Translations under genes and position numbers: made by a program
Notes under the pieces: generated by a model
Database searches by the model: none
Told to the model about the DNA's origin: nothing
Seen by the model: only the letters and a program-made list of their open reading frames with translations
Shown here: one piece after another, positions 8,837-28,437 of the stretch
Numbering within the stretch: the stretch's first letter is position 1
How the letters are laid out: every line of letters begins with the position of its first letter
DNA from: an uncultured Planctomycetia bacterium
Lineage (GTDB): Bacteria > Omnitrophota > Gorgyraeia > JABMRG01
Length of the DNA: 64,000 nucleotides
Assembly (NCBI GenBank): GCA_964634945.1
Contig: CAZWMG010000002.1
Coordinates: 38,661-102,660, forward strand
Direction: 5' to 3'

Positions 8837-10663
8837 ATGCAAAACATTTCCCTAAACAATCTCTTGTCAAGAGCATCCAAGCAGAAGCATTATATCCTTC
8901 TCGAGACAAGCAGGACCGATAAGAGCAACAAAACCAGTTACCTATTTAAGAACCCACTAAAGATCGTATCATGTGATTCTCCCGGTCAAACAAAGCCCTC
9001 AATAGACAAAATAGAGTCTTTTTTAAAGAAAGGTTATTTCGCGGCGGGCTTTCTCTCCTATGAGGCAGGCTTTGCAATGGAAGACGCGCTTAAAGCAAAA
9101 GTGGGCCGCGGTTTTCCGCTTATCTGGTTTGGAATATTTAAAGATGTGGAAGCCTTTGACCATTCAAGGACTCAATTTAATGACGATATTTCTAAGGGTA
9201 CCTACAGGATAAAAGATGTGAAGCCGGAGGTATCTAAAAAAGAGTACATAAACTCTATAAAAAAGATAAAGGCTTATATAGAAAAAGGGGATACGTATCA
9301 GGTAAACCGCACCTTTAAGCTCGATTTTTCTTTTACCGGGTCCATTCCTGACCTTTATCTGTATCTTAGAAGAAAGCAGAGCGTATCATATTCAGCCCTT
9401 GTTAAGATTGACGAACAATATATACTCTCTTTCTCTCCGGAATTATTCTTTAAAAAAGATAAAGATTTTATACGGGTAAAACCGATGAAGGGGACTATTG
9501 GCAGGGGGCGCCTGTTTAATGAGGATACGCAAAACGCTAAGATGCTGCGCCTCTGCCCAAAGAACAGAAGTGAGAACATCATGATTGTAGATCTCCTGCG
9601 TAATGATCTAAGCAGGATATCCAGGAAAGGCTCAGTAAAGACCAGGAGATTTTTCTCGATAGAAAAATATGAATCACTCTTTCAGATGACCTCCACAGTA
9701 GAGAGCAAGGTGCGCAGAGGAGTCTCTCTGTATGAGCTTTTTAAAGCGACATTTCCCTCAGGTTCGGTAACAGGCGCGCCAAAGATAAGTTCAATGAAGA
9801 TAATAGATAAGCTTGAGAAAAGCCCCAGAAAAATATATACAGGAAGCATAGGCTTCCTGGCCCCTAAAGGAGAAAGCGCTTTTAGTGTCGCTATACGCAC
9901 ATTACTGATAGATAAGAATAAGAAAAAAGGAGAGATGGGTATTGGCAGCGGCATAGTCTATGATTCTGACCCCAAGAACGAGTATGATGAGTGTATATTA
10001 AAGGCGAAATTTTTAACGGAAAGAACAAAGGATTTTTCTCTTATCGAAACCCTGCTGTGGGAACCGAACAAGGGCTACCCTCTTCTCAAGTTCCACTTAG
10101 AAAGGCTCTCCGCGTCAGCGAAATATTTTGATTACTATTGCAGCAAAGCAATGGTGACAGCCTTTCTTAACAAGCTCACCAAGGTTTTTGACAATAGGGC
10201 GTATCGCGTGAGGCTCTTGCTTAGTAAAAACGCAGAAATTAGCGCCACGTATGATGTTATTGAAGAAGATAATAGCCCTAAGATAATTACTTTTTCAGAA
10301 AAAAAGACAGACTTCTCGGACAGATTTTTATTTCATAAGACCACGAACAGAAATATCTATGATAGAGAGCATAAGAAATATAAAAAACAAGGTTTTTTTG
10401 ATGTAATATTTTGCAATAGGAATAATGAGGTTACAGAGGGCGCGATATCTAATATTTTTATTAAAAAGGGCAACAAGTATTATACGCCGCCTAAGATGTG
10501 TGGTTTACTCGATGGCGTATATAAGAAACATCTTATTTCAAAAAAGATACTAAATATTGAAGAGAAGATATTGACGCCTAATGATATAAAAACAGCACAG
10601 AGAATATTTCTTACAAACGCTGTGCGAGGCACGGTTCCTGTAAAATATGTAAAAAAGGGCTAA
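8837..10663 (+). CDS. pabBC: Bifunctional aminodeoxychorismate synthase component I / aminodeoxychorismate lyase (PabB-PabC fusion)
   Basis: Chorismate-binding 'PSGSVTGAPKISSMKII' and 'GIGSGIVYDSDP' (TrpE/PabB family). The C-terminal ~230 aa has a class IV aminotransferase-like fold ('LLWEPNKGYPLLKFHLERL'). Confidence 0.7.
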   Translation: MQNISLNNLLSRASKQKHYILLETSRTDKSNKTSYLFKNPLKIVSCDSPGQTKPSIDKIESFLKKGYFAAGFLSYEAGFAMEDALKAKVGRGFPLIWFGIFKDVEAFDHSRTQFNDDISKGTYRIKDVKPEVSKKEYINSIKKIKAYIEKGDTYQVNRTFKLDFSFTGSIPDLYLYLRRKQSVSYSALVKIDEQYILSFSPELFFKKDKDFIRVKPMKGTIGRGRLFNEDTQNAKMLRLCPKNRSENIMIVDLLRNDLSRISRKGSVKTRRFFSIEKYESLFQMTSTVESKVRRGVSLYELFKATFPSGSVTGAPKISSMKIIDKLEKSPRKIYTGSIGFLAPKGESAFSVAIRTLLIDKNKKKGEMGIGSGIVYDSDPKNEYDECILKAKFLTERTKDFSLIETLLWEPNKGYPLLKFHLERLSASAKYFDYYCSKAMVTAFLNKLTKVFDNRAYRVRLLLSKNAEISATYDVIEEDNSPKIITFSEKKTDFSDRFLFHKTTNRNIYDREHKKYKKQGFFDVIFCNRNNEVTEGAISNIFIKKGNKYYTPPKMCGLLDGVYKKHLISKKILNIEEKILTPNDIKTAQRIFLTNAVRGTVPVKYVKKG

Positions 10664-10664
10664 T

Positions 10665-11495
10665 ATGCTTAAAAAGATTACGTTGCTTATTGCTTGTATT
10701 ATGTTGTCTACTCAGATCCTTTACGCGGGCCAGAACTTCACCACTTCCAACAGAAAGGCCGCGGAGAAGGTCAAAAAAGAAATTGTAATCGAACCTCCCC
10801 AACCGCAATTACCGGAGTATGAGTATCTTAAATATACGGTACGTTGGCTAGGCATACCTGTCGGATATATCACAGCTTCTATTAAAGGGATAAAAACTAT
10901 GCGCAACAGAAGGGCGTACCTGCTTGAGGTAGTCGTAAAAACAAACGCGTTCTGTTCAGCTATATATAAGATAGACGACCGCTTCTTATCTTACATGGAT
11001 GTTGAAGGAAAGTATACGTTACGCCATGAAGTCTACCGCAGGGAGGGTAGGTATAAAAAAGACGCTGTTACGGATTTTGATCAGATAGCGCATAGGGCGC
11101 ATTTTAAAAACTTCCTAGATGGTTCAGAAAAAGACTTTGACATACCCCCTAATGTGCAGGATACTTTAAGCGCATCTTATTATTTTAGATTGCTACCAGT
11201 GGATATAGGGGCAAGAATTGAGTATGCTGTATGCAATAATGAGGCTATTTATAAACTTTTAGGGGTTATCGAATCAAAAGATTTTATAAAGGTGCCGGGG
11301 TTAGGCAAAAGAGCGGCTTTTTTTATGCAGCCATATGCCAAGCTTAAGAAGAAGAGAGTAAAGAAGGGAAGGGCCAGTGGTTATTTTAGCACCGACTCAA
11401 AGAGACTGCCCTTATTGGCTGTTGTTCGAGCGCCTATACTTACAAAGGTTACAGCCTCATTATCAGAAATAGCATATGGACAAGATATAGAATAA
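10665..11495 (+). CDS. Secreted DUF3108-like protein, paralogue of 7951-8820
   Basis: Signal peptide 'MLKKITLLIACIMLSTQILYA'. The 'YLKYTVRWLGIPVGYITASI...YKIDDRFLSYMDVEGK' pattern is recalled from DUF3108. Confidence 0.4.
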   Translation: MLKKITLLIACIMLSTQILYAGQNFTTSNRKAAEKVKKEIVIEPPQPQLPEYEYLKYTVRWLGIPVGYITASIKGIKTMRNRRAYLLEVVVKTNAFCSAIYKIDDRFLSYMDVEGKYTLRHEVYRREGRYKKDAVTDFDQIAHRAHFKNFLDGSEKDFDIPPNVQDTLSASYYFRLLPVDIGARIEYAVCNNEAIYKLLGVIESKDFIKVPGLGKRAAFFMQPYAKLKKKRVKKGRASGYFSTDSKRLPLLAVVRAPILTKVTASLSEIAYGQDIE

Positions 11496-11576
11496 GTGGT
11501 ATATTATTTTTATACGATCCCGTCGTTAACTAAGAGATATAGATATAAAATAAAGCTTTTAAATTTATTACCTTGT

Positions 11577-11665
11577 GGAGAGGTGTCCGAGTTGGTTGAA
11601 GGAGCACGCTTGGAAAGCGTGTATACAGCAATGTATCCAGGGTTCGAATCCCTGCCTCTCCGCCA
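11577..11665 (+). tRNA. tRNA-Ser (anticodon GGA) with a long variable arm and encoded CCA
   Basis: Hand-folded: acceptor GGAGAGG/CCTCTCC, anticodon stem CACGC/GCGTG, loop TTGGAAA, variable arm ATACA/TGTAT, T-arm CAGGG-TTCGAAT-CCCTG, discriminator G, CCA. Confidence 0.85.
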
Positions 11666-11749
11666 CAGTTTTTTTAATCATCATAACTTTAATGTTGACA
11701 AGGAGATAAAAAAGTGATACATTAGTTAAAAAGGTAGCTTGCCCAAACG

Positions 11750-12478
11750 TTGCCCAGAAAAGAAGATGTGATGATAATGTGGCCGAAAAATATAGTAAAG
11801 AAAATTATTTTAGCAATCCAACTAAGGATTGCTTTTTTATTTAAACTAATGCACAGAAAGAGAGACTTAATTGTAAATACTCTTTTTGCTTTTGCGTTAA
11901 TAACTATATTTCTTGGAAAAAATAGAGGCCCACTTGACAGGCTATTAGGATTCATGTTAATTCTTGGTTTGTTAGGAATTTTAAGGGCTGCTTATCAAGC
12001 TTTTTGTGATATTGCTGATGAAAAAAAGAATTATCATCGCGTGATAATTATATGGCTTGCAATAGCAACTATTTTAACTTTTGCATATTCGCTAACAGAG
12101 TTTACTCGCCCAATAATTAACAGCGGTTTGATAGAACTCGATTACACTGTAGATGCTGATTTATTAATTCTCAATCCAGATAAAGGATTTAAGGCAAAGA
12201 AGATGCCGGGCTTAATTAATTGGCAAATATATTTCCCACGCGGAATACATGAAATAAAAAATATTGTGTGCGAATCTAAATCAACAAAAAAAAGAGTATC
12301 TTGGCAAGAATACGTAGACTTTGAAGTCAAAGATAATTATATTGAATCTCGACACGAATTTAATTTGCACCATCCCGATTGGCGCATAGGTAAGCTTATG
12401 ATTGTTTATGAGTATAGATTAAGTCCTATTGAATATTTCAAAACTCCTATAAAGATCTTTGTAGAAAGGTTTAAATAG
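11750..12478 (+). CDS. Hypothetical membrane protein (three predicted TM helices plus a soluble C-terminal domain) between attL and the integrase
   Basis: ORF track. Hydrophobic segments are visible. No recognisable family. Confidence 0.35.
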   Translation: MPRKEDVMIMWPKNIVKKIILAIQLRIAFLFKLMHRKRDLIVNTLFAFALITIFLGKNRGPLDRLLGFMLILGLLGILRAAYQAFCDIADEKKNYHRVIIIWLAIATILTFAYSLTEFTRPIINSGLIELDYTVDADLLILNPDKGFKAKKMPGLINWQIYFPRGIHEIKNIVCESKSTKKRVSWQEYVDFEVKDNYIESRHEFNLHHPDWRIGKLMIVYEYRLSPIEYFKTPIKIFVERFK

Positions 12479-12483
12479 TAAAG

Positions 12484-13515
12484 ATGGCAACCTTACGAAA
12501 ACATCAAAGTGGAACGTATTTTATAGATTATCGCTTAAGTGGTAAGCGATTACGTAAGACTGTGCCCACTAAGTCTAAGAAAATGGCAGATCTTGTTTTG
12601 AAAGAGTTTGAAGTTAATCTTGCCAAAGGAGAGTTAGGTTATGCTGTAAAAGACGAAGTCCTGGAGAAGCTGTTTAGTGACTACCTAAAATATTCCAAAA
12701 CCCACCATTCACAAGGCACCCAAAATAGATATAGAGCTATATTAGATAATTTTAGGCGTTTTCTTAAGAGTTACCCCCATATTTCAAAAATATCTCAAAT
12801 GGATACAAGGCTGTTTGAAGATTATAAAACTTCTCGCTATGAGGAAGAAGTGAGTAATAAAACTATCAACATTGAATTACGAACGATTCGTGCTATGTTT
12901 GCACTTGCTAAGCAATGGGGCTATATCAAAGAAAATCCTACAGATGGTGTGAAATTCTTAAAGGTTAGAAAGGATGATAAGCCACGCTTTCTTTCCAAAG
13001 ATGAGTGTAAGAAGCTATTAGACGCATGTAACAAATGGGAATATCCAGTTTTTTATGCTTTTCTCTATACAGGCATGAGAAAAAGCGAGTTACTTTTTTT
13101 AACATGGAATGATGTTGATTTTGTGAGAGGCAAGATAAAAATAAGGGCCAAAGAAGGTTGGGTACCTAAGACCTCGGAGAGAGAAATACCTGTTAATAAT
13201 GGCCTCAAAGAGCTTCTGCAAGGCCTCAGGGCCACGAAAAAGAGCGAATGGGTGTTCTGTGATGAACGGGGCCAGCAAATCGAAAACAACCGTCTTAGAA
13301 AACGCCTCATGAGCATAGCAAAGCGGTGTGGTTTTGGTGATGTGACAAAACTACATACCCTCCGCCACACTTTTGCAAGCCATCTTGTTATGAGCAGCGT
13401 GGATCTGCCCACAGTAAAGAAACTTATGGGGCACTCAGACATACAAACAACAATGATATATTCTCATTTAGCAGATGAGCATGTAGATAAAGCAGTAGAG
13501 AAACTGGAGTTTTAA
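12484..13515 (+). CDS. int: Tyrosine site-specific recombinase (phage integrase family)
   Basis: C-terminal catalytic motifs 'HTLRHTFASHLV' and 'LMGHSDIQTTMIYSHL' (R..HxxR..Y). N-terminal SAM-like core-binding domain. Confidence 0.85.
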   Translation: MATLRKHQSGTYFIDYRLSGKRLRKTVPTKSKKMADLVLKEFEVNLAKGELGYAVKDEVLEKLFSDYLKYSKTHHSQGTQNRYRAILDNFRRFLKSYPHISKISQMDTRLFEDYKTSRYEEEVSNKTINIELRTIRAMFALAKQWGYIKENPTDGVKFLKVRKDDKPRFLSKDECKKLLDACNKWEYPVFYAFLYTGMRKSELLFLTWNDVDFVRGKIKIRAKEGWVPKTSEREIPVNNGLKELLQGLRATKKSEWVFCDERGQQIENNRLRKRLMSIAKRCGFGDVTKLHTLRHTFASHLVMSSVDLPTVKKLMGHSDIQTTMIYSHLADEHVDKAVEKLEF

Positions 13516-14205
13516 ATGAAGTTCAAAGGAGTGAATTTAAATAAAATAGATAAGATGGGAGCCCTAGCTTTTAAAAATTGCTTAAGGTTACATTTTGATT
13601 CCATAGTGCTATTTAACAGTAAGTCATATCCTTCGGCGTTGTATTTTTCAATACTATCCCTTGAAGAATTTGGCAAAGCTATTTTATTATCTGATTTTGT
13701 GTGGCACTCTAGAGTAGACGGGAGATATAATGCAGTTCAAGATAAAGATCTTAAAAAAGAATTTGGAGAAGACTTAGAACATTATGTTTTAAAGGAAATT
13801 TATTCACATAGTTATAAACAGCGATATTTTGCTTCTGAAATGTTACAATCACGGAAGAAACCATCACGTCTATTTAAAAGTATAGTCAATAATGAGCTTG
13901 AGACAGAGAAGCAAAACTCGATGTATGTAGGATTTACTAGAAAGAAAGGCAAGATAGATTTCAAAAGCAAGATAAAGCACCCATTCAACATAAAAAGAGA
14001 AAAAGTTTTAAAGCAGATAACTAGGCTTAATGATATACTTTTAGAATTAGTGTTACTTGACATAATATACAATGAAGGCTACTTATTTAACTTGGAGTCA
14101 TCGGAGAGCATTGTAACAAAGCAATTGTATCAAAAGTTATTTGACGTATGGAAATTTAAAAGCAAGCCTGTTTTGCGAAGGTTAAAAAAATGTCAAAAAA
14201 TATAG
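13516..14205 (+). CDS. Possible AbiV/HEPN-like abortive-infection protein
   Basis: The N-terminal 'NCLRLHFDSIVLFNSKSYPSALYFSILSLEEFGKA' resembles the AbiV-family HEPN helix pair. This is from memory and no search was run. Confidence 0.3.
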   Translation: MKFKGVNLNKIDKMGALAFKNCLRLHFDSIVLFNSKSYPSALYFSILSLEEFGKAILLSDFVWHSRVDGRYNAVQDKDLKKEFGEDLEHYVLKEIYSHSYKQRYFASEMLQSRKKPSRLFKSIVNNELETEKQNSMYVGFTRKKGKIDFKSKIKHPFNIKREKVLKQITRLNDILLELVLLDIIYNEGYLFNLESSESIVTKQLYQKLFDVWKFKSKPVLRRLKKCQKI

Positions 14206-14387
14206 ATTAGTACTAATGTGTCTCGAATTTACTCTTGCACACTATAGCATGAATGTAACTACATAATATCTATATAGTTAAATAAGAAACATAAAGTATA
14301 ACATATTAATCTTAGCAGATAAGCATATGAATACAGCAGTTAAGAAGTTGAAGTTTTAATTGAAAAAGTGTTAACTGGGGTAGACTA

Positions 14388-15227
14388 ATGAACCAATTTT
14401 TCTATGGGATTATTTTTCTTGTTTATGGTGCCGGATTTTTTAGTATTGTATATGGAATAATAAGACTTGTTTTATCATATGTGAAATTCGCAAAAACTTT
14501 TAATGGTACTGCTAAAGACTCGATTCTTGCCTGGGTCTTTAACGTAACTAAGAAAGTTAAATATTTTGCTTCTAAAAATAAAATAGAGGAACTAACAAGA
14601 ATTAGACCAAATTACGCTCGGTTTTTTAATACCATATGCATGATGGTTGTCTTCTTGATTAATGCCCCAATATTTTTTATACAAATGGGTTTAGTCTTAT
14701 TATGCGGAAATGTAGAATTTCTTTGGTGGTTACCGTTAAGCTTATACGACATTTGGCACATTTTTATCATTATTTTTTCTTTCTACTTAGCTGTAAGTAA
14801 ATTTTACTACTTATCTATTTTTATAGCATTTTTAATGGTCATATTAGGGTTGTCTGAAGTTTTAGACAATTTCAAGCGAGATGAGGAGGGGAAGATGAGA
14901 ATAGAGGTTATGCCAAAACATAAAATTAGAATATTATCTATTCTCATAGATTTCCTTATTATTATTCTGGCATATGGTGCTATTTATTTTTCTATTTTCA
15001 ATATTAATAATAATACATTTGCCAAAAGCTTAACTATATTTGATTCTGTGTACTTTAGCTTTATCACTATTTCCACAGTTGGGTATGGAGACATAGCGCC
15101 TACAAATGTTCTGTCTAAAGCGTTAGTTGTTTCAGAAATTATTGTGGGATACACTTTTCTAGTTATTGTTTTTGCTGTATATATTAATGTATGGATTAGG
15201 CGAACTACGGAAAGCGAAAAAAAATAG
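14388..15227 (+). CDS. Multi-TM membrane protein with a C-terminal K+-channel pore (canonical TVGYGD selectivity filter) and no cytoplasmic gating domain
   Basis: 'FSFITISTVGYGDIAP' followed by an inner helix. Several N-terminal hydrophobic helices. Confidence 0.55.
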   Translation: MNQFFYGIIFLVYGAGFFSIVYGIIRLVLSYVKFAKTFNGTAKDSILAWVFNVTKKVKYFASKNKIEELTRIRPNYARFFNTICMMVVFLINAPIFFIQMGLVLLCGNVEFLWWLPLSLYDIWHIFIIIFSFYLAVSKFYYLSIFIAFLMVILGLSEVLDNFKRDEEGKMRIEVMPKHKIRILSILIDFLIIILAYGAIYFSIFNINNNTFAKSLTIFDSVYFSFITISTVGYGDIAPTNVLSKALVVSEIIVGYTFLVIVFAVYINVWIRRTTESEKK

Positions 15228-15290
15228 TTTGAAATTCAATGAAAAGAATGAGAACAAGGTGTTCTTTAATGATATTTAGGAGGTGAAAAA

Positions 15291-15485
15291 ATGGCTATAT
15301 TTCTTTTTTTATTATGTGCATTAAGTTTTTTCTCTGGGGTTATGGCTACAATAACAGCTACAACAATATTTCAGCAGATTATAGGAGCTATATCTTTATT
15401 ATCAGCAGCTATTTTGTTAATAGGTGCAAGTGCTGTTAATGCGATAGACAAATTAACACTTGAGATAAGAAAAGAAAAAAAGTAA
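15291..15485 (+). CDS. Small 2-TM membrane protein, hypothetical
   Basis: ORF track. 64 aa, almost entirely hydrophobic. Confidence 0.3.
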   Translation: MAIFLFLLCALSFFSGVMATITATTIFQQIIGAISLLSAAILLIGASAVNAIDKLTLEIRKEKK

Positions 15486-15557
15486 AAAAGTATTTAGGTG
15501 GCTGAAAATATAAGCGACGGATAAGGTGTTCTTAAGTAAAGAATAGCGAGGCGTGAG

Positions 15558-15941
15558 ATGAAAAAGAGTATTTTGTTTCAAATTTTACTTGTTATTATTT
15601 TATCAATACCTAACTATGTAAAAGCAGAGGAATGGCAAAATATTTGCCCTGACCCAAATGTTATATATTGTGATAATGTAGGAAAGGACGCCTACAACAA
15701 CAATATAAATCCCCCTTTCTTAAGAGGTATTAAGCTCGGTAAAATAATAGGTGTTACTTGGAGACCAAAAGGTAGTGTAGTGGGTATTTCAGAAGCTATG
15801 CCAGAAGCAGGAATACCAAAAGAGGTAAGAAAATCGCCCAGAGATGCTTATTATTACATAATAGACGATGGAATGGTAGATGCCAAAGGAAAGAAGAAGC
15901 CTCCTTTTCTCAGGCAATGCAGGGAAATAGATGCAAAGTAA
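15558..15941 (+). CDS. Secreted hypothetical protein with a signal peptide
   Basis: 'MKKSILFQILLVIILSIPNYVKA' signal. No family recognised. Confidence 0.35.
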   Translation: MKKSILFQILLVIILSIPNYVKAEEWQNICPDPNVIYCDNVGKDAYNNNINPPFLRGIKLGKIIGVTWRPKGSVVGISEAMPEAGIPKEVRKSPRDAYYYIIDDGMVDAKGKKKPPFLRQCREIDAK

Positions 15942-16224
15942 AAGAGTATGGTTTAGATAGGCAGGCAAAGGGTGAAGAACAGATAGTTCTAGTGCAAAAG
16001 TATTTGTAAAATAAAAATGGGGTGATATAATAAAAATATAAGATTTTAATAGGAACGTAGCTTTTCTTATCGAAAATCAACACGCTAGAAGAAAAGGACT
16101 ATGTCCCAAGCACGAAAGTGCTTTGGGGCAAGCGGTCTTTGCTTTCACTAGCGTGTTGGGCTTAGACTTAAAAATGCTTGCCCTTTTTTATTGAGAAGGC
16201 ATAGCGAAATAGGAGAAGAACACA

Positions 16225-16470
16225 ATGAAAAAAATAATCTTATTATTCACACAAAAAATTGAATGGTGTTTAACGTTAATAGGTTCTTTTATGGTTACTT
16301 CAGGCATAATAAATTTTTCTTCTGGCTGCGAGTTTAAACTTGGGGGGAAAGCGACTTATGCCTATTATTACTATTACAGTACACATGATAAAATTATAAT
16401 TACATTAGGTGTTGTTTTCTTAGCGCTAGGCATATTGATATATAAAGAAAAACGAGCCAAACAACAATAG
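16225..16470 (+). CDS. Small membrane protein, hypothetical
   Basis: ORF track. Two hydrophobic helices. Confidence 0.3.
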   Translation: MKKIILLFTQKIEWCLTLIGSFMVTSGIINFSSGCEFKLGGKATYAYYYYYSTHDKIIITLGVVFLALGILIYKEKRAKQQ

Positions 16471-16614
16471 AAATGGTATTGACAATAATAAACTATAGGC
16501 ATATAATATGTATGAAAATTTGATAAGTCCCGTGTTAGAAGGGGGAAACCCGGACTTTAAAAAAGTAAAACCTTCGCTCAAAAGGCGGAGGCTTTTTATT
16601 TGAAAGGACAATAA

Positions 16615-17367
16615 ATGGGTAAGGAGTTTTCGGCAGGAGCTATTATTTTTCGAAAGCCAGAAAACTGGGCACTTTTTCTACTTGTTTATAGCAAAAGAAA
16701 TAAAATATGGTGTTTTCCAAAAGGACATATAGAGCCCGAAGAAAGTGAAAAAGAAGCAGCGCTGAGGGAGATAAAAGAAGAGACAGGCATATCTGACCTA
16801 AGATTTGTTGATGGTTTTAGGGAAGAGGATATATATAAGACGAAAAGCAATAGAGGCAAGCACGAAGGAGAGATTATAGAGAAGCATTCTATATACTTTT
16901 TATGTGAAACATCATCTGGGTTATCGAGTGAAGATATTGTAGTTGATGGTAGCGAAATAGCAGATTATAAATGGCTTTCTTTATCTGATGCTAAAAAGTT
17001 GCTTACTTTTGACAGCTTAATAGTGTTGGTAAAAAAAGCAGAAGTATTTGCACATTTAGACATTCCTAAAAATACACAATGGAAAAGGATAGCAATCAGT
17101 CATAAGATTGACCGATATGTATTAGATATCTCTAAATATACATTGCCATACTATGAAGTACAACGAATTGACATTGGTGGAGATGATCACAGAGTGTATT
17201 TTGTAGTTCCTGGTAATCACTTTGGTATGCCTTATGGCAAAGACATAAGAGACTTGATTGATGAATGCAGCAAATATTGGAAAGGCCCATACTACGATCA
17301 CATAAAGGCAATTAAGGAAGATTCAAAAAAAAGAGGTTTACCATCCGATATTGAAGCGGATAAATAA
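16615..17367 (+). CDS. Nudix hydrolase with a ~100-aa C-terminal extension
   Basis: Perfect Nudix box 'GHIEPEESEKEAALREIKEETGI' (Gx5Ex7REUxEExGU). Confidence 0.75.
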   Translation: MGKEFSAGAIIFRKPENWALFLLVYSKRNKIWCFPKGHIEPEESEKEAALREIKEETGISDLRFVDGFREEDIYKTKSNRGKHEGEIIEKHSIYFLCETSSGLSSEDIVVDGSEIADYKWLSLSDAKKLLTFDSLIVLVKKAEVFAHLDIPKNTQWKRIAISHKIDRYVLDISKYTLPYYEVQRIDIGGDDHRVYFVVPGNHFGMPYGKDIRDLIDECSKYWKGPYYDHIKAIKEDSKKRGLPSDIEADK

Positions 17368-18070
17368 TATGAAGATTTTATTCAGTTTTTTTGTAATAGT
17401 TTTCTTTGCAGTCCCTATATGTATGGCAGATGAGTTAATTCCTCAACAAATAGAATGGGAAGGTAGAACATATGATCTTGCTCCTTGGGACGATCGTAAC
17501 AAAAGTGTAGTTTATGGTGATTTTGATGGAGATGGTGAAGAGGAAGCCATAGTTAATTTTCGGGTTGTTGAAGAGGGTGATACCGATATTCAGTTTCCGC
17601 ATGTATTCCATATTATATACGATGATGTTGATAGCCATCCCCGTATTGTTAAAACTATTAAATCTATAGATGAGCGCTTAGATAAAGTATTGCTGATAGA
17701 TTTACCGGATAAACAAGGGAAGTCACGCAAGACAATAGCTATTTTTGGTTCAGGTGGTAATCATTATACAGCTCTTGAAATATACCAATATAGAAATGGT
17801 GACTATGGAAGGATATTTGTAAATGGTAGTGCTTGTCCAGTAGAAATTAAAGAGGATGCAGATCCTTTGCAAATATGGGTAGGAAGGGCTAACTGGGAAA
17901 AAGAAGGTTGGTGTTATGCAGACTTGAATTACCTATGGCAAGTATATAATTGGGATGGAGAGCGATTTAATTATAGTGATGAGCTTAGCACTTGTATTGA
18001 AATAACGGAAGAACAAGAGCTCTCGAGATTCATAGCACAATTTAGGGATAAAACGGAAGATTTGAGTTGA
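17351..18070 (+). CDS. Secreted hypothetical protein
   Basis: Signal peptide 'MKILFSFFVIVFFAVPICMA'. Acidic 'FDGDGEEEAIV' motif. No family call. Confidence 0.35.
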   Translation: MKRINNMKILFSFFVIVFFAVPICMADELIPQQIEWEGRTYDLAPWDDRNKSVVYGDFDGDGEEEAIVNFRVVEEGDTDIQFPHVFHIIYDDVDSHPRIVKTIKSIDERLDKVLLIDLPDKQGKSRKTIAIFGSGGNHYTALEIYQYRNGDYGRIFVNGSACPVEIKEDADPLQIWVGRANWEKEGWCYADLNYLWQVYNWDGERFNYSDELSTCIEITEEQELSRFIAQFRDKTEDLS

Positions 18071-18428
18071 TCTAAAAAGTGGTTTCTGGCATTTTTTACT
18101 TGTTTTTTTGAAAATCTATGATACTATATTAAATAGGTAAAGTTCTTTATATAGTTAAAAAGCTAATAAAAATGTTTCGGTACTCGTTTTCGGTAGCGAT
18201 AATTACCGGTTTTATGCTGAAGCAGGAGGCGTGGAACCTCAAAAAAAACCATCTTTGGCAAATGGCGACATAGCACAAAGAAATTAGCGCGTAGAGCTTA
18301 ACTTATAACGCATATAAGCATAGAGTTCAACACAGGGAGATAGTGTACCCTAGTTGGGCTCTTTTCATTGTAGACCCATTAGGATGCATAATCTTAGTGG
18401 GTTTTTTATTTTAATAGGAGACATAGAA

Positions 18429-18746
18429 ATGAAAAGTAAACTCGGTATTGAAGAAGTGCAGATAGTTTTGATCAAGCCTACAAATGGTTTAATTGGTTTT
18501 GCTTCCTGTGTTACTAACGGTCAATTTTACATTGGCAATATAGCGATATATACATCCTTGAGTAAGCCTGGTGAGTACCGCTTGACCTATCCAACAAAAA
18601 AGCTGTCTTCTGGTAAGCAATTGCCATGCATACACCCAATAAATAAAGAAACAGAGGCTGCTATACAAGAAGCGATTATAGCAAAATACAAAAAATTGAT
18701 TGAGGAAGTGATAGAGAATGATGAAAAAGCTCAAGGTGGGGCCTAG
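18429..18746 (+). CDS. spoVG: SpoVG-family protein. The likely true start is the MKSKLG methionine inside track ORF 18354-18746.
   Basis: 'EVQIVLIKPTNGLIGFASCVTNGQFYIGNIAIY...CIHPINKETEAAIQEAI' matches the SpoVG fold pattern. An RBS-like 'aggagacatagaaATG' precedes it. Confidence 0.6.
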   Translation: MKSKLGIEEVQIVLIKPTNGLIGFASCVTNGQFYIGNIAIYTSLSKPGEYRLTYPTKKLSSGKQLPCIHPINKETEAAIQEAIIAKYKKLIEEVIENDEKAQGGA

Positions 18747-19257
18747 AAACTTTTTGTACTATTTATCTAATCAGTATAATTATTTTAAGGAATTATCAAG
18801 ATTAGATGAAGATGGCTCATTTTATAAAAGTGATAAAATTGCTGCAGAATACATAAATGTTTCAAGCAAAACTATTAAGAGATGGCGAGAGATCTTAAAG
18901 AAAGAAGGTTTTATATATTTTATTCCTGGCAGGCATGTAGGAGATGCTACAAGATACTGGATATTAAAAGAGAATGACAAAATGGATGGGAAGGGTGACA
19001 AATTGAACGGAGAGGGTGACAAATTGTCATATAGAGGTAGACAAAATGTCCCCCCATATAAAGAAATAATAAAAGAAAAAAATAAAGAAAAAAGAGAAGA
19101 GAACTATATTTCTCCCTTTTTTTTTAAAACAAAAAAAATCACTGAAAAAACAAAAACCCTTGAAGATGTTTCCGCAGAGACAATAAATGAGCTTCGAGAA
19201 GTATTAGGTGAAGAACAGCTAAACAGATATTTGCTAGATAAAGGATATGTGAAATAA
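18718..19257 (+). CDS. Hypothetical island protein with a possible N-terminal HTH and a K/E-rich C-terminus
   Basis: ORF track. 'SSKTIKRWREILKKEGFIY' is an HTH-like segment. Confidence 0.3.
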   Translation: MMKKLKVGPRNFLYYLSNQYNYFKELSRLDEDGSFYKSDKIAAEYINVSSKTIKRWREILKKEGFIYFIPGRHVGDATRYWILKENDKMDGKGDKLNGEGDKLSYRGRQNVPPYKEIIKEKNKEKREENYISPFFFKTKKITEKTKTLEDVSAETINELREVLGEEQLNRYLLDKGYVK

Positions 19258-19567
19258 AATGACCAGAACCCCTTTAAAGGCTATAAGAGCTAAGCGCCTT
19301 GAGTGCACAGGACGGCCTAAAGATATAAGATTGTGCCCAAGTCTAGAATGCCCCCTGCACTTATATAGGATGGGAAAGAACCCTAATAGGAAAGGCATCG
19401 GTAATTTAAAGCCTAGTTTTTGTGCAAAAAATGCATCTCAGCAAGATGTTTTATAGAGATCAGCCTATTGCAGGGCGTAACCGCCAGAAGAAAATAAGTT
19501 TTTTAAAAAACTAAGCTGAATTGTGGAAAATGACAAAATCAAACATATTCAAACAGGTTAGAGAAAA

Positions 19568-19945
19568 ATGGCTCAGGAGCTTAGTAGTAGACAGATAAAA
19601 GCCGCACTTAATTATTTAAGCGCACCCTCTGTAGATGAGGCATGTAAAAAATCTAATATAGCAAGATCAACCTTCTATAAGTGGATGCAGGATGAGAACT
19701 TTAGCTCATTTTTGGCCCAAAAGCGCGAAGAAATCACTAGAGAGGCCTTAAGCAGACTTAAAGATTCTTTAGTGGGCGCTGTTTCTAAGTTGGTAAGCCT
19801 GGTTAACTCTGATAATGAGCAGATAGCCAGGCTTAGCTCTAAGGACATCATCGATTATGTGTTAAAAACTATAGAACTAGAAAAAATTGAACAGAGAATG
19901 GTCAAGATAGAAGAGGCTTTGCAAACTAAGGGGTGTAGAGTATGA
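19568..19945 (+). CDS. Hypothetical HTH-containing protein (phage small-terminase-like N-terminus)
   Basis: 'ACKKSNIARSTFYKWMQD' is a helix-turn-helix signature. Confidence 0.3.
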   Translation: MAQELSSRQIKAALNYLSAPSVDEACKKSNIARSTFYKWMQDENFSSFLAQKREEITREALSRLKDSLVGAVSKLVSLVNSDNEQIARLSSKDIIDYVLKTIELEKIEQRMVKIEEALQTKGCRV

Positions 19946-20278
19946 GGATTCAGCAGAAACTAGATAAAATCGACTGCATGCTTGGTATCAATTCAATAAC
20001 AGGCAAAGAAGGTAAGATAAAAGGAACATTAGCAACCCTGGTAAAACAAGCCTGCGGAGCAATCCCAGCAGATGTTGAGATTGAATATGATGGGGAGCTT
20101 GGCAGGGTTATCAAAATGCATGCCGAAGGCAAGTGTGACGAAAGTGACATTCAAATCCTATAAAACTGGTGAATTGGGCACCAGGTGGGCAGTAGGGGCA
20201 TATAGGTATCATATAACATATTTATAATAAACAGGTTATGCTAAATCGAGTAAGAATATAAAGTTCTTAACCAGGGAG

Positions 20279-20833
20279 ATGCATATCATGAGAGACATTG
20301 AAGAAATGGAAGATGATGATCCGATGGGGCACGATCCGACAGAGCTGTATATGTATGGCATGAATCCCAAATCTGATAAGGGTAGACATTTTAGGAATAA
20401 CATCTTATGGTGGAGACCATTATGGAATTATTTAATTCATAACTGCAGTGATCTTTTAACAGAAAATCAGTTGAACAGCTCGCATGATTGGGACTTTAAG
20501 GATATTAGTGAAAAACAAGCTCTTTTAATAGCCCAAAGGCTCAATGAACATATAGCATCTGGAAAAGTGGAAACCTATAGCAATATTTTTGAATATATAA
20601 AAGGAACTTCAGGCCCTGTGCCATGTACATACTGCAATGGTGAAGGTGTTATTACCAAAGATTATACAAACTATAAGGAATCAGATTGCGATGTATGCCA
20701 TGGTGATCGCGTAATATCTATTATAAGTGTATTTTATTATTTTAGTGAAAATAATGTAAAAAGATTTGCAGATTTTGCTCAAAACAGTGGTGGCATTAAC
20801 ATTTATAATGAACTTCAGCCTATGTATAGGTAA
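20279..20833 (+). CDS. Hypothetical protein with a CxxC...CxxC zinc-ribbon
   Basis: 'CTYCNGEGVI...CDVCHGDRV'. Confidence 0.3.
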   Translation: MHIMRDIEEMEDDDPMGHDPTELYMYGMNPKSDKGRHFRNNILWWRPLWNYLIHNCSDLLTENQLNSSHDWDFKDISEKQALLIAQRLNEHIASGKVETYSNIFEYIKGTSGPVPCTYCNGEGVITKDYTNYKESDCDVCHGDRVISIISVFYYFSENNVKRFADFAQNSGGINIYNELQPMYR

Positions 20834-20930
20834 AAACCAATAGAGCTAAAAATGAAGAAACAGGTATTCTAAGATATGGTAGCGATCCTTAGTGTTTAAC
20901 ATAAGAACTATAAGTTCTAAGCCAGTATTT

Positions 20931-21128
20931 ATGGAAAAACTATTAACAGTAAAAGATGTAAGTATGGTATTCCAAATGAGTCCAAAAACCATTAGACACT
21001 GGGCTCAGATAGGATATATACCTCATTATAAATACAGAAAAGAAATAAGGTTTAATGGAGTAGAGCTTCAAAGATGGTCGTTAAGGAAAAAAATTAAAGG
21101 ACGTTCAAAATATACTCTAGAGGTATAA
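20931..21128 (+). CDS. Excisionase/AlpA-like HTH DNA-binding protein. Internal start of track ORF 20892-21128.
   Basis: 'LLTVKDVSMVFQMSPKTIRHWAQIGYIPHYK' matches the HTH_17/Xis pattern. Confidence 0.45.
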   Translation: MEKLLTVKDVSMVFQMSPKTIRHWAQIGYIPHYKYRKEIRFNGVELQRWSLRKKIKGRSKYTLEV

Positions 21129-21225
21129 AATGCTTGACTTATCTATATATTGTAGTAAAATATTCCTATATGGAATATTATTATGCCCACAAATTATCGT
21201 ACACGTATAAATATAAGGTATTGTT

Positions 21226-21582
21226 ATGTCTTTTTGGAATATTAAGCTCACTGATAAGTTTGAAATAAGATATGAGGCGTTTGAGGAAAAATACGAAGAG
21301 GAAATAATATCCGCTTGGGATAACTTAGATGCTTATTTAAAAGCGTTGCAAGGCGTTGATAATCCCCTAAAGGTGAATAGCGGATATATTCATATAGAAA
21401 CAAAAGGCATGATCGCGATTGATCAAACAAAGGCAGATAGAAAACTAAGAGAAATTAGGCTGTATATATATCCTGATGTAAAAACTAAAACATTACTGCT
21501 TTTAACAATAGGAGACAAGAGAACTCAAAAGAAAGACATCCAATTTGCAGTGAATTGTATCAAAAAATATAAAGGAAAATAA
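21226..21582 (+). CDS. Type II toxin, RelE/HigB-like (phage-related protein family)
   Basis: The C-terminal 'IRLYIYPDVKTKTLLLLTIGDKRTQKKDI' resembles the HigB/RelE core. It is immediately followed by an XRE-HTH gene 2 nt downstream. Confidence 0.5.
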   Translation: MSFWNIKLTDKFEIRYEAFEEKYEEEIISAWDNLDAYLKALQGVDNPLKVNSGYIHIETKGMIAIDQTKADRKLREIRLYIYPDVKTKTLLLLTIGDKRTQKKDIQFAVNCIKKYKGK

Positions 21583-21583
21583 A

Positions 21584-22162
21584 ATGCAGAAACAATATAA
21601 TAAAGTTTCAGATTTAGTAAAGAGTATATCAAAGAGTAGCAAAGTAAAAGAAAAAACTTTAAAAGAAATTGAGAACAGATCAATTTCTAAGTTTTTGTTT
21701 TTTTTAAGATGTGAACATAATCTAACTCAAAAAATACTCGCAGAAAAAATTGGTTGTACACAAAGCAGAGTTTCCAAAATAGAATCTTCATATGATGCGG
21801 ATTTATCAGTAAAAGATTTATTAGATTACGGCGACGCAATTAATTTAAACCTAGAATTAGGGTATAGACAGAAAAATGCTAAAATTACTGATTTAATTAA
21901 ATATCATGTAATTAGAGCAAAGGAATATCTTTCCATGCTTACGGATATGGTTAAAGGAGATAAAACTATTAAGGGTGGAGTTCTTAATTTTATGGAAGAA
22001 TGTTTATATAATTTTTTAGATGGACTTACAAAAAGTTTGCAAAAACTTAACTTAAGAAAAAATATTTCTGAGCCAAAAGATATTATACATATTTCCCCAC
22101 CTTTGCATGATAGGAAGATAGCAGAGTCCAATGAATCGGAAAAACTTGCAGGAAAAACTTAA
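21584..22162 (+). CDS. XRE-family HTH antitoxin (HigA-like)
   Basis: 'LTQKILAEKIGCTQSRVSKIESS' is a canonical XRE helix-turn-helix. Confidence 0.55.
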   Translation: MQKQYNKVSDLVKSISKSSKVKEKTLKEIENRSISKFLFFLRCEHNLTQKILAEKIGCTQSRVSKIESSYDADLSVKDLLDYGDAINLNLELGYRQKNAKITDLIKYHVIRAKEYLSMLTDMVKGDKTIKGGVLNFMEECLYNFLDGLTKSLQKLNLRKNISEPKDIIHISPPLHDRKIAESNESEKLAGKT

Positions 22163-22232
22163 TTTTTTATTCGAGCATTTCTTATTAATATAGAAATATA
22201 TGTTAATTAAGTAAAATAAAGGTTGAATTATA

Positions 22233-23135
22233 ATGTATTTTGAGCACAAGGAACTTTTAAAACCACCAATTGCAAGAGCAGCGTATAGCGACAGAACAGC
22301 TTGGTTGATGGCAGAGCTTTCTTACCTTGCTTATCTAAAATATGAAGTAGATAAAAAGCAAAAATTAGAATCATGTCTTAAGGAAGCGGAACTTGATCTT
22401 GTGAATATTTACAATCAAGGTGGGACTCAAGCATATTTAGCTAAAAATATCAATAGCAATATGGCGGTTTTAGCTTTTAGGGGGACGGAGATTGAAGGTC
22501 TTACATTAGAAACAATGCTCGATGTATGGACCGATTTATTTTTTAAATATCATAAAGACGATAGAGGCGTATTAACTCATAAGGGATTTCTCAACGCATT
22601 CGAAAATGTAAGAGAGCATATACAATCAGATCTTAGAACAATACCAGAATTTTCTTTGTATATTACGGGTCATTCTTTAGGTGGAGCCTTAGCTCTTATA
22701 GCGACTAAAATATTTAATTCAGATAACATAGCAGCTTGTTACACTTTTGGTAGTCCTAAAGTAGGGAATGAGGATTTTGATGACGAGATAAAACCCCCTA
22801 TTTATAGGGTAGTCAATGATGTTGATTTAGTGCCTTTTTTACCTTTTACGCCAATAATGCATGTTTTATCAATTTTTAACAAAAAATGTAAAAAGCTTAA
22901 AAAACTCCTTACATATATGTCACACTATAAACATACGGGTCACGTGCAATTTTTAGAAAAAACAAAGGGAAGCAAAGCAGAAATAAAGACACGAAAAAAC
23001 TATGGTGAAATAACTCGTTCTATTGATCTCTTAAGAAGAACTATAACTAAAAACAAAAAAGCGGGAGTAGATTGTCATTCAATGGACGAATATTGTAAAA
23101 AATTAGCTAAATACGCACAGCAAAGATTAAAATAA
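22233..23135 (+). CDS. Class 3 lipase (alpha/beta hydrolase)
   Basis: Nucleophile elbow 'ITGHSLGGALA'. Typical lipase_3 context 'FRGTE...'. Confidence 0.7.
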   Translation: MYFEHKELLKPPIARAAYSDRTAWLMAELSYLAYLKYEVDKKQKLESCLKEAELDLVNIYNQGGTQAYLAKNINSNMAVLAFRGTEIEGLTLETMLDVWTDLFFKYHKDDRGVLTHKGFLNAFENVREHIQSDLRTIPEFSLYITGHSLGGALALIATKIFNSDNIAACYTFGSPKVGNEDFDDEIKPPIYRVVNDVDLVPFLPFTPIMHVLSIFNKKCKKLKKLLTYMSHYKHTGHVQFLEKTKGSKAEIKTRKNYGEITRSIDLLRRTITKNKKAGVDCHSMDEYCKKLAKYAQQRLK

Positions 23136-23288
23136 ATCTTGCCCAAATCTTGCCCATTTTAGAGCTCTACAAAGGTTTTTAAGCGGACAAAAACGGACAT
23201 AAATTCTGCGAGTAACTTATAGCAATATCAACAACTTGTGTCATAATTCGTTGAAATGCAAGGAGTTACAAAAGCACCCTTAGAGGTT

Positions 23289-23305
23289 TCCCTGCCTCTC
23301 CGCCA
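23289..23305. repeat. attR-like 17-bp direct repeat of the tRNA-Ser 3' end
   Basis: 'tccctgcctctccgcca' is identical to 11649-11665. The flanking 'ggtt' is also shared. Confidence 0.55.
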
Positions 23306-23390
23306 GTTGTTTTAGCTATTTGGAAAATTTGCTTTTCTATTGCAAATTTTCCTTGACTTTTAAGCGAGGATAATATATACTTTTAATGCC

Positions 23391-24617
23391 ATGAGAAAAA
23401 TATATATACATAGGCAGATAGAAAGCGTCCTTAAGAAAGCCGCAAAACAGTTTTGCGCGGTTGCGGTAACTGGCCCTAGGCAGTCAGGTAAATCTACATT
23501 GCTCAAGGAGTTATTTTCAAAAACACATAATTATGTTACGTTTGATGACCCTATTGTGCGGGAACAGGCCATATCTGACCCGCGTTTATTTTTAGATAAC
23601 GCGGGCGAGAAAGTCATTATTGATGAGATTCAATATGCGCCTCAGATACTATCCTATGTTAAAATGGTGATAGATAATAATAGAGAAAGAAAAGGGCAGT
23701 TTATATTTACCGGTTCCCAGCAATTTGTGATGATTAAAAATTTGGGTGATTCTCTTGCAGGCAGAATCGCGCTTTTGGATCTTTTGCCGTTTAGCATTAA
23801 TGAAAGCCGACGTGTTCCAAGAAAAACCAAGATGCTTGATACTACTGAAAAGTGCCTTGTCGATTCTTGTCTTTTTGGCTCATTTCCAGAACTTGTTACA
23901 GCAAAAAGCATCAATTCTAATGCATGGTATGGCGCGTATTTAAGAACTTATTTGGAAAGGGATATCAGCACAACTTATAATATAGGCCGATTAAGAGAAT
24001 TTCAGCTTTTTGTTCAGTTGTTAGCATCACGATGTTCGCAGGAATTGAATCTTTCCGCACTTTCTAATGATATAGGCGCCAGCGTTAATACGATTAAGAG
24101 ATGGGTATCAATTCTTCAGGCAAGTAGAATCATATATTTGTTGCCGCCGTACTATCAGAATTTTGGAAAAAGAATTACAAAAACACCAAAAGTATATTTT
24201 TTGGATAATGCTTTAGCTTGTTATTTGTTAGGGATAAAGGATAAAGAAACTTTACTGAAAGGCCCTATGGCGGGCGCCTTATGCGAAAATTTTTATATAC
24301 AAGAAACCATCAAGCATTATTTTAATTTTGGACTAAAGCCGCAGCTCTATTATTTTCGCCTGAGGAATAGCTTAGAGGTAGACTTGATAATAGAGCATGC
24401 TGATAGAAAATTGTCACTTATCGAGATAAAACTGTCAAAAACTCCAAATAAAAAGATGACAGCCAATATAGGCGCATTCAAAAAGAATTTTTCAAAATTA
24501 GTGGTTAAAGATAGTAGGGTTCTTTGCTTAAATGATACTGATATGCTATTGGCAAAAGATGTTTATTGCCAGGGGTTAGATAGTTACCTCGAATATCTTA
24601 ATAGCCATGTTCAATAA
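23391..24617 (+). CDS. AAA-family ATPase (AAA_14 + DUF4143 architecture)
   Basis: Walker A 'GPRQSGKST'. Typical length and C-terminal DUF4143-like region. Confidence 0.65.
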   Translation: MRKIYIHRQIESVLKKAAKQFCAVAVTGPRQSGKSTLLKELFSKTHNYVTFDDPIVREQAISDPRLFLDNAGEKVIIDEIQYAPQILSYVKMVIDNNRERKGQFIFTGSQQFVMIKNLGDSLAGRIALLDLLPFSINESRRVPRKTKMLDTTEKCLVDSCLFGSFPELVTAKSINSNAWYGAYLRTYLERDISTTYNIGRLREFQLFVQLLASRCSQELNLSALSNDIGASVNTIKRWVSILQASRIIYLLPPYYQNFGKRITKTPKVYFLDNALACYLLGIKDKETLLKGPMAGALCENFYIQETIKHYFNFGLKPQLYYFRLRNSLEVDLIIEHADRKLSLIEIKLSKTPNKKMTANIGAFKKNFSKLVVKDSRVLCLNDTDMLLAKDVYCQGLDSYLEYLNSHVQ

Positions 24618-24640
24618 TTTTCTGTCACAATTCTAACACG

Positions 24641-24668
24641 TTGACATTTTTCCCACTTGTAATATAAT
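24641..24668 (+). promoter_or_regulatory. Near-consensus sigma70 promoter (TTGACA-16-TATAAT) driving a ~200-nt leader ahead of the GIY-YIG gene
   Basis: 'ttgacatttttcccacttgtaatataat'. Confidence 0.45.
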
Positions 24669-24882
24669 ATAAATCAAGCGGTTACGGAAACAGGGTTCGA
24701 ACAAAGCGGAGAACACACCGCCATGCACCACTCACTTTGCTTATATGGTGCATGCCCTGAACCCGAACTGCGAAGCAGTGAGTGGTTTAGGGCAAAGCTC
24801 GGATGCATGGCACGCCATCTAGCTTGGATATTTAAAGTCTTTCTGGATTTTTTCTCGGGTTCGCTGTACAGCAGGTGGAAAT

Positions 24883-25149
24883 ATGCATTATGTTTATGTA
24901 CTTATAAGCTTAAAAGACCGCAAATTTTATATAGGTTATTCCGAAGATGTTTCTCGTCGGGAAAAAGACCACAATTCAGGTAAGAATCTAAGCACTAAAT
25001 CCCGCCGGCCGCTCAAAATGTTTTATTATGAAGCTCATTTTTCAAAGCAAGATGCTATGAAAAGGGAACGATACTTTAAAACAGCAAGGGGCAAAACTAC
25101 GCTAAAGCAAATAGCAAAACATTCGATTCAAGAGTTGCTAAAAGGTTGA
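24883..25149 (+). CDS. GIY-YIG nuclease-family small protein
   Basis: 'YVYVLISLKDRKFYIGYSEDVSRREKDHNSG' is a GIY...YIG motif. Confidence 0.7.
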   Translation: MHYVYVLISLKDRKFYIGYSEDVSRREKDHNSGKNLSTKSRRPLKMFYYEAHFSKQDAMKRERYFKTARGKTTLKQIAKHSIQELLKG

Positions 25150-27747: not shown

Positions 27748-27753
27748 TTAAAA

Positions 27754-28377: not shown

Positions 28378-28437
28378 TCCCCCGTATTGGACCAAGGTCC
28401 AATTTACATAAATCCCAGTTTTTGATATTGTCCTTCC

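Follow-up and report, generated by a model that had tools for sequence, protein, structure and literature searches.

The 64-kb stretch of DNA analyzed here (the window), from an uncultured bacterium of the Planctomycetes-Verrucomicrobia-Chlamydiae (PVC) group, most likely Candidatus Omnitrophota to judge from the names of flank-protein homologues, very probably holds a site-specific integrative element of ~11.66 kb, at positions 11649 to 23305, inserted in the 3' end of a tRNA-Ser(GGA) gene. We put the probability of this reading at about 82%, a joint figure that covers the boundaries, recombination of the core by the integrase, the arm sites, the modular arrangement of backbone and cargo, and the chimeric origin of the island. 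The reading follows from an exact core repeat, low G+C content, integrase and excisionase genes, unoccupied sites in relatives, and sister islands that end in the same core. A first-pass annotation of the window had proposed a bounded element of ~11.7 kb at this place, and the repeat, the integrase, the excisionase, and the unoccupied relatives all agree with it.

Boundaries and attachment sites

The 17-nt core, TCCCTGCCTCTCCGCCA, is the 3' end of the tRNA gene and occurs exactly twice in the window, at the two ends of the island (Table 1). The first-pass annotation had noticed this recurrence, and it is not one expected by chance: 100 shuffled sequences yielded no match at all, even when two mismatches were permitted. 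There is no third copy in the window with four or fewer mismatches. The G+C content of the island interval is 0.29 to 0.37, as opposed to 0.40 to 0.45 across most of the remaining window, and the 5 kb flanking it on each side fall in between (0.36 to 0.41). All island genes lie on the plus strand. An Rfam search over positions 11400 to 26000 found no known RNA other than the tRNA.

Partial extra identity in the flanks had also been read as a sign of attL and attR. In an ungapped comparison that identity is meaningless, and the feature that the two ends actually share is a tandem motif, CTTGCCCAAAnnTTGCCCA (TTGCCCA-N4-TTGCCCA), found inside both of them. The same motif is present at the same offset in the related islands L024, L025, and L026, and variants of it occur in others: GGTGCCCA twice at both ends of the L027 island, TGTGCCTA twice in L033, and TTGTGCCCA twice in L031. 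Because the motif differs between elements yet agrees at both ends of one element, we take the repeats, by analogy, to be putative arm sites of the integrase.

The promoter inside attL is shared with the sister islands L025, L026, L027, and L033, where the -35 hexamer does not vary and the -10 hexamer hardly does. The intrinsic terminator is located ~90 nt 3' of this promoter, and its 8-bp stem is 100% paired in four islands, with compensatory changes in five of the eight pairs and a covariation score of 0.77, compared with 0.26 in shuffles. These features predict a transcript or leader of ~110 nt that would cover the left arm sites and lie upstream of the first cargo gene and int. Such a transcript might act as a small RNA or attenuate the expression of int.

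In the mechanism that we propose, the tyrosine integrase would join element and chromosome by recombination at the 17-bp core, whose sequence is that of the tRNA 3' end. Integration of this kind would leave the tRNA intact and duplicate the core, and an intact tRNA and a duplicated core are what is present. The arm sites, which lie ~80 bp in from the left end and ~140 bp in from the right, would serve as the integrase arms of an attP of ~265 bp, as the covariation of the two ends suggests, and the HTH_17 excisionase (Xis) would, judging from its family, set the direction toward excision.

Occupied, unoccupied, and decayed sites in related genomes

In at least 10 sequencing runs, Logan contigs carry this sequence with 100% identity, in the same context and with the island integrated. 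A comparison with related genomes, which the first-pass annotation had suggested as a way to find an empty tRNA-Ser site, revealed unoccupied sites in the two closest species compared; these are other species, at about 77 to 81% nucleotide identity to the window, and not the same species. In the first (L166/L167; ~81%), the tRNA-Ser carries one core copy and no island, and homology with the window ends precisely at 11665. This is the organism of the metagenome-assembled genome L011 (99.97% identical), whose own contig ends before the tRNA; the longer contig from ENA (L166/L167) covers the site. The second species, L118, likewise has a single core copy at an unoccupied tRNA, followed by a hairpin and then by radical-SAM and DEAD-helicase genes within 1.2 to 2.7 kb.

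Other relatives hold different islands between the same 17-nt repeats. Those related to the island described here (L024/L025, L026, and L027) sit at the same tRNA and have integrases 93%, 82%, and 68% identical to its own, and relatives of the integrase at 63 to 93% identity are located at tRNA-Ser genes. The sister island in L027 (9155 to 18326) has this core at its end as well, and the flank outside it agrees with what follows the tRNA in L166. Copies of the core also enclose unrelated islands, of 8.2 kb in L116, of 6.4 kb in L119 (which includes a type IIG restriction gene), and of 7 kb in L164. The L164 island has no integrase, and its 7 kb include sulfotransferase, glycosyltransferase, and Fic genes; either it is stranded or it moved in trans. 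In L165, only the left arm remains, together with a GmrSD gene, and in L031 a right end of the L119 type is followed on its right by an island of the window type, which makes a tandem insertion. Because related, unrelated, decayed, and tandem islands all occur here, this tRNA-Ser site is a shared integration hotspot, on which three or more types of element have landed. The comparison thus spans occupied, empty, and decayed sites as well as tandem insertions, and gives comparative support to a cleanly bounded mobile element in a candidate phylum without cultured genetics.

Two further observations concern these sites. In L164, the tRNA's own core at 9950 reads TCCCAGCC..., and the distal repeat at 17015 reads TCCCTGCC..., as in the window. 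In L030, an integrase gene (9781 to 11026; product 67% identical to that of the window) adjoins tRNA-Ser(CGA) rather than tRNA-Ser(GGA), with ankyrin and NYN genes as cargo. Judging from this placement, the integrase family appears to have switched between serine tRNA targets.

Several points weigh against a mobile element. Among the contigs of this strain (at least 10 runs), there is no excised circle and no empty site of the same species. The predicted attP junction is ...CCTTAGAGGTT + TCCCTGCCTCTCCGCCA + CAGTTTTTTTAATC..., and the predicted attB junction is ...GGGTTCGAA + TCCCTGCCTCTCCGCCA + GTTGTTTTAGCTATT...; IMG/VR does not contain the attP junction in its exact form, and neither do the contigs that carry the last island gene. 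The backbones of the window and L027 have diverged (37 to 68%) about as much as the flanking host genes (44 to 60%), so the island may long have been inherited vertically. The roles given to the arm sites and to Xis are argued by analogy, and the island encodes no transfer machinery.

We also considered, as a sign of a coexisting empty site, two contigs that begin at 11636/11637, 30 nt before the tRNA end, which hints at a branch in the assembly graph. This was set aside, as attR has no corresponding break.

A phage-derived backbone

Pfam was applied to 19 island proteins and PHROGs to 10 of them. The first-pass annotation had named a tyrosine integrase, an Xis/AlpA-like helix-turn-helix (HTH) protein, and SpoVG, all of which the profile searches bear out (Table 1). 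Its gene list was sound for the genes with profile support and overlooked the terminase-small-subunit-like (TerS-like) gene, the initiator-like winged HTH (wHTH) gene, and the phage derivation of the backbone as a whole. Kept across the sister islands are int, the SpoVG-like, Cys-rich, TerS-like, and Xis genes, and a small wHTH gene conserved in position.

The integrase motifs HTLRH and IYSH (R...HxxR...Y) can be read in the translation. Orthologues of the SpoVG-like protein, 39 to 52% identical, occupy the same position in L025, L026, and L027, and a scan of IMG/VR with this protein found no relatives. The slot that follows SpoVG holds RepA_N-like proteins in L025 and L030; here it holds the winged-helix protein, which had no Pfam, PDB, or phage BLAST match and no pairwise similarity to a phage DnaD-like organizer. 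Within its gene, a 21-nt unit (TGACAAAATGAACGGAAAGGG) is repeated 2.3 times in tandem at 18975 to 19023. These repeats resemble the iterons embedded in phage initiator genes; they also encode a repeated peptide. The Cys-rich protein, of a sort typical of phage regions for replication and packaging, has 42 relatives in viral contigs. In L127 it lies between Erf and SSB, in a replication/recombination module, and in the genuine phage L158 it lies directly upstream of an HTH-helical open reading frame (ORF) and TerL. Xis has orthologues in L027 and L030. Overall, the backbone looks like the early region of a phage that runs on through terS and breaks off before terL.

Cargo slots

Cargo occupies three slots: slot 1 between attL and int, slot 2 after int, and slot 3 after xis. 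Across L025, L026, L027, L030, and L031 the backbone is kept and the cargo swapped. Slot 1 holds a RES-domain protein in L031 (57.5 bits) and, by eye only, a protein with an RNQLAH motif in L027. Slot 2 holds DUF3800 in L027, DUF5677 in L025, and an ankyrin protein in L030, and slot 3 holds Fic in L027 and NYN in L030. We propose that related elements would exchange the contents of these slots by recombination. The conserved backbone, with its three slots, could be mined for defense genes.

The AbiV/HEPN protein, the K+-channel pore, the Nudix hydrolase, and the class-3 lipase of the first-pass annotation were each confirmed by profile searches. From its sequence, the slot 2 protein after int qualifies as a member of the AbiV family and is a putative abortive-infection gene product; it also scored 57.6 bits against NCBIfam TIGR04498 (cut-off, 27) and matched the PADLOC AbiV profile partially (5e-6, residues 23 to 76). 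The defense-finder run that had been suggested thus recognized AbiV; otherwise, PADLOC gave only weak candidate matches, to the Nudix and HTH proteins.

Between the AbiV gene and the channel gene lies a leftover of the 3' end of a second integrase gene. It suggests that this island is a chimera, a fusion of two related elements, and, in the simplest reading, a deletion across two tandem related elements would have joined the int-AbiV portion of one to the cargo of the other. The leftover also suggests that the position directly after int is a recombination hotspot for cargo. AbiV and the channel would have been acquired separately, since it separates them, and a two-gene system made up of AbiV and the K+ channel is ruled out for the same reason.

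The K+ channel-like protein gave a weak Kch-like match in the NCBIfam search. Among 5.8 billion clustered proteins, it had no full-length homologue, only pore matches with coverage of at most 33%; the single context examined among these was chromosomal. The third of the small ORFs that follow (16225 to 16470) has a 32% identical relative in the cargo of the L030 island. A terminator-like hairpin at 16571 to 16591 stands ~60 nt past the consensus promoter at 16479 and just upstream of the Nudix gene, and positions 16479 to 16600 may give a second short transcript or leader.

In slot 3, the HigB/HigA-like pair that had been proposed holds in part: the HTH_3 partner and the order of toxin then HTH gene, one base apart, are as described, while the RelE/ParE-like toxin stays below threshold (24 bits versus 62.85). 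The putative toxin had no Pfam match, and its AlphaFold model (pLDDT 40) was unusable.

Table 1. Features of the island and its surroundings, by position in the window
Feature	Position	Strand	Evidence or remark
tRNA-Ser(GGA), integration target	11577-11665	+	ARAGORN; Rfam tRNA, 56 bits
attL core copy, last 17 nt of tRNA-Ser(GGA)	11649-11665	+	Exact match
Sigma-70-type promoter inside attL (TTGACA, 17 nt, TACATT, extended -10 TG)	11695-11723	+	Promoter scan, 10/12 positions
Left tandem arm-type repeat, CTTGCCCAAACGTTGCCCA	11738-11756	+	74-91 nt from core; putative integrase arm-binding sites
Intrinsic terminator, hairpin and T-run	11812-11843	+	Terminator scan
Slot 1 cargo protein, 209 aa (235 aa if start at 11771)	11849-12478	+	Membrane-spanning by eye; no Pfam, PADLOC, or NCBIfam match
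Tyrosine integrase, 343 aa	12484-13515	+	Pfam Phage_integrase (PF00589), 1e-36, full domain; SAM-like N-terminal domains
AbiV-family (HEPN) protein, slot 2	13516-14205	+	Pfam HEPN_AbiV (PF18728), 67.1 bits, cut-off 27.1, 2.7e-18
Leftover of second integrase 3' end (LADKHMNTAVKKLKF, then stop), 53 nt	14312-14364	+	79% identical to 13468-13520; last 15 codons and stop
K+ channel-like membrane protein, 279 aa	14388-15227	+	Pfam Ion_trans_2 (PF07885), 58.3 bits, cut-off 22.5, 7e-16; TVGYGD filter
Three small ORFs, membrane or secreted in appearance	15291-15485, 15558-15941, 16225-16470	+	Called in all assemblies; no family match
Consensus promoter before Nudix gene (TTGACA, 17 nt, TATAAT)	16479-16507	+	Promoter scan, 12/12
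Nudix hydrolase with C-terminal extension	16615-17367	+	Pfam NUDIX, 2.5e-18; PADLOC candidate PDC-S07, 3e-7 over 34 residues
233-aa protein, N-terminal hydrophobic signal-peptide-like stretch	17369-18070	+	No family match
SpoVG-like nucleic-acid-binding protein	18429-18746	+	Pfam SpoVG, 1.9e-9
Small winged-helix protein, 179 aa	18718-19257	+	Weak replication-initiator/DnaD-like signal, PHROG 4e-7 to 6e-4
Cys-rich protein, 65 aa	19259-19456	+	59-62% identical in L025, L026, L027
TerS-like protein, 125 aa, HTH then long helix	19568-19945	+	Pfam HTH_Tnp_1_2 (PF13022), 34.3 bits, cut-off 27.9
ORF, 73 aa	19942-20163	+	L027 has an unrelated ORF of similar size at the same position
184-aa protein with CxxCxGxG zinc motifs	20279-20833	+	Accessory; absent from L027
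Xis/AlpA-type excisionase-regulator	20892-21128	+	Pfam HTH_17 (PF12728), 6.9e-9; PHROG excisionase, 8e-7; MerR match
Putative toxin, RelE/ParE-like, 118 aa, slot 3	21226-21582	+	TIGR02683, 24.1 bits, below cut-off 62.85; PHROG toxin, 1.3e-4
HTH_3 antitoxin-like protein, 192 aa, slot 3	21584-22162	+	Pfam HTH_3, 1.1e-7; weak PADLOC candidate match
Class-3 lipase, GHSLGG motif, slot 3	22233-23135	+	Pfam Lipase_3, 1.6e-26
Right tandem arm-type repeat, CTTGCCCAAATCTTGCCCA	23138-23156	+	133-151 nt before core
attR core copy, island right end	23289-23305	+	Exact match; L027 island ends with identical core
Region right of island	23306-40400		DUF4143 ATPase, GIY-YIG gene, two-component systems (MASE3 histidine kinase, two response regulators), isochorismatase, DUF1254/DUF1214, patatin, glycine-zipper proteins

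Relation to phage satellites and alternative explanations

The island is of a well-known kind, a tRNA-integrating element with defense and addiction cargo, and an ordinary one in an understudied host; a satellite lifestyle is plausible for it. For its route from cell to cell, our favored guess would be packaging by a helper phage via the TerS-like protein. Stated in full, the island would be a phage satellite of the type of the phage-inducible chromosomal islands (PICIs): a helper phage would induce excision via Xis/AlpA, the TerS-like protein would redirect the helper's TerL to package the 11.7 kb, and the cargo would guard the host against other phages. We hold this only tentatively, as somewhat short of an even chance.

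The argument turns largely on the TerS-like gene, which is present without TerL or structural genes. Its product is above the Pfam cut-off (as is the L027 orthologue, 38% identical, for the same family) and matches PHROG terS at 7.8e-9. In a tblastn search of 50,697 phage records, it matched only six Streptococcus satellite phages, at ORFs downstream of the primase, one of which passes Pfam Terminase_2. The best fold match of its single-sequence AlphaFold model (pLDDT 80) is 2AO9 (Foldseek probability, 1.0), a putative nonameric TerS (PMC7672466), and matches of the model to viral structures include several annotated small terminases. The order of wHTH, Cys-rich, and TerS genes is also that of phage L158 just upstream of TerL. 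All of this evidence is modest, however, with a BLAST E value of about 1e-4 and a Foldseek E value of 0.016. PDB sequence searches with the TerS-like, Rep-like, and toxin-like proteins found nothing significant, a word-indexed homologue search with the TerS-like protein returned only itself, and neither a helper phage nor a related TerS was found in IMG/VR.

PICIs, including the Staphylococcus aureus pathogenicity islands (SaPIs), are the closest known systems (PMC10085698). Like them, the island falls within ~10 to 15 kb, has an integrase at one end and an AlpA/MerR-type HTH gene, carries a terS homologue without structural or lysis genes, and has accessory defense genes beside int and after terS; the streptococcal PICIs above are the only phage-database matches of its TerS-like protein. 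Of the five PICI core components, it has three, namely, the integrase, an alpA/merR/stl-type regulator, and a small terminase homologue (judged by Pfam and PHROGs, not by SatelliteFinder's own profiles). A primase-replicase is missing, as none of the island proteins has the domain of a primase or a helicase (Pfam, NCBIfam) and the replication-initiator signal is weak; a capsid-morphogenesis gene is missing too, with no head or capsid match in Pfam (19 proteins) or PHROGs (10). Three of five corresponds to "Type C," a class deemed ambiguous by the SatelliteFinder authors (PMC10085698). The island further differs from PICIs in that all of its genes are co-oriented and there is no divergent master repressor of the Stl type, in having the SpoVG-like gene in its conserved backbone, and in belonging to a host phylum without a reported satellite in the satellite literature cited here. 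The lack of an excised form counts against a satellite as well.

Other systems share parts of this design. The tycheposons of Prochlorococcus (bioRxiv 10.1101/2020.12.28.424599) are likewise tRNA-targeting tyrosine-recombinase elements with partial tRNA copies at their flanks. Several element types can share one tRNA site, beside which an additive island grows from tandem integrations and degenerate leftovers, and some members are PICI-like with terS. Their hallmark primase and helicase replication genes are absent from our island, which carries terS and cargo together, whereas no PICI-like tycheposons with extra cargo were seen in that study. [quoted passage not shown] They need a DUF3987/DUF5906 primase and a site by fis and lack terS, whereas the island has a TerS-like gene and no primase and lies in a tRNA. 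With tRNA islands of the lambda/P4 type it shares core recombination in the tRNA 3' end, arm-type sites, and Xis, and with the defense hotspots of P4-like satellites, variable defense cargo at fixed positions in the backbone. It differs from P4 in having no psu, delta, sid, or alpha genes and in its integrase lineage and host.

A more ambitious version of the satellite reading would make the element and its sisters (L024 to L027 and, more distantly, L030, L031, and L033) an undescribed satellite family of Omnitrophota, primase-less, SpoVG-regulated, and TerS-bearing, resident in tRNA-Ser genes, with three fixed slots for exchangeable defense or toxin cassettes and the K+ channel and small membrane proteins as a possible membrane-depolarizing anti-phage effector. 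Taken jointly, we find this doubtful; within it, the orphan 6TM-like K+ channel could be such an effector. If the satellite reading is true, satellite biology reaches Omnitrophota and a primase-less design joins the known types. If it is false, this is a standard genomic island that changes no current concepts.

It is also conceivable that the island is immobile, a decayed prophage or fossil whose phage-like genes are leftovers inherited vertically within an additive tRNA-proximal island. Its fixation and identity across all samples of the strain would fit, as would the similar divergence of backbone and host genes noted above, and decay is evident elsewhere at the site, in the L164 repeats without an integrase, in the lone left arm of L165, and in what is probably a degenerate right end at window positions 24614 to 24701 (see below). 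The island itself, however, has a full-length integrase with its catalytic motifs, cores identical at 17 of 17 positions, and intact arm sites and Xis. Moreover, L027 keeps the same compact, att-bounded backbone despite ~40 to 60% divergence, which random decay would not reproduce, and genomes with 93% identity between their integrases have only 39% between their SpoVG-like proteins, which points to recent module exchange. We therefore consider a fossil distinctly unlikely. Highly improbable, finally, is an integrative mobilizable element conjugated by the machinery of a co-resident conjugative element: like many mobilizable islands, this one encodes int and xis and no transfer genes, but no island protein has relaxase, oriT-like, or coupling-protein domains (Pfam, NCBIfam), and the affinities of the backbone are with phages and not plasmids.

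The region to the right of the island

In L118, L119, and L165, the tRNA or attR has DEAD-helicase and radical-SAM genes close by, and the window orthologues are at 40430 to 43198. Because the DEAD-helicase gene is near the tRNA in these relatives, the ~17 kb from 23306 to 40400, which have no counterpart there, are extra material, perhaps derived from an old island. A third core repeat is absent from this region. We considered extending the island over the DUF4143 ATPase gene; this was rejected, as the core and arm sites put the end at 23305.

Window positions 24614 to 24701 are 83% identical to the sequence just left of the L119 attR core, and are probably the degenerate right end of an older island. 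The DUF4143 ATPase gene (23391 to 24617) would then be a leftover of that older island. Such a history of the site matches the additive tRNA-proximal island model of tycheposons. The 88-nt block occurs at three places, namely, the window (1.3 kb right of attR), L119 (17235 to 17322), and L031 (155 to 231, left of the island). In order, it consists of a TTGACA...TATAAT promoter, AAATCAAGCGGTTA, and a sequence like a tRNA T-arm, CAGGGTTCGAA; the core that follows is degenerate in the window.

Logan contigs from several runs that reach ~24750 all stop exactly at 24750. No other copy of this region is present within the window, and the stop implies either that the genome holds a repeat elsewhere or that the strain is heterogeneous. 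Position 24750 lies within a GC-rich stretch with inverted repeats (24700 to 24860), just upstream of the 88-aa GIY-YIG gene (24883 to 25149).

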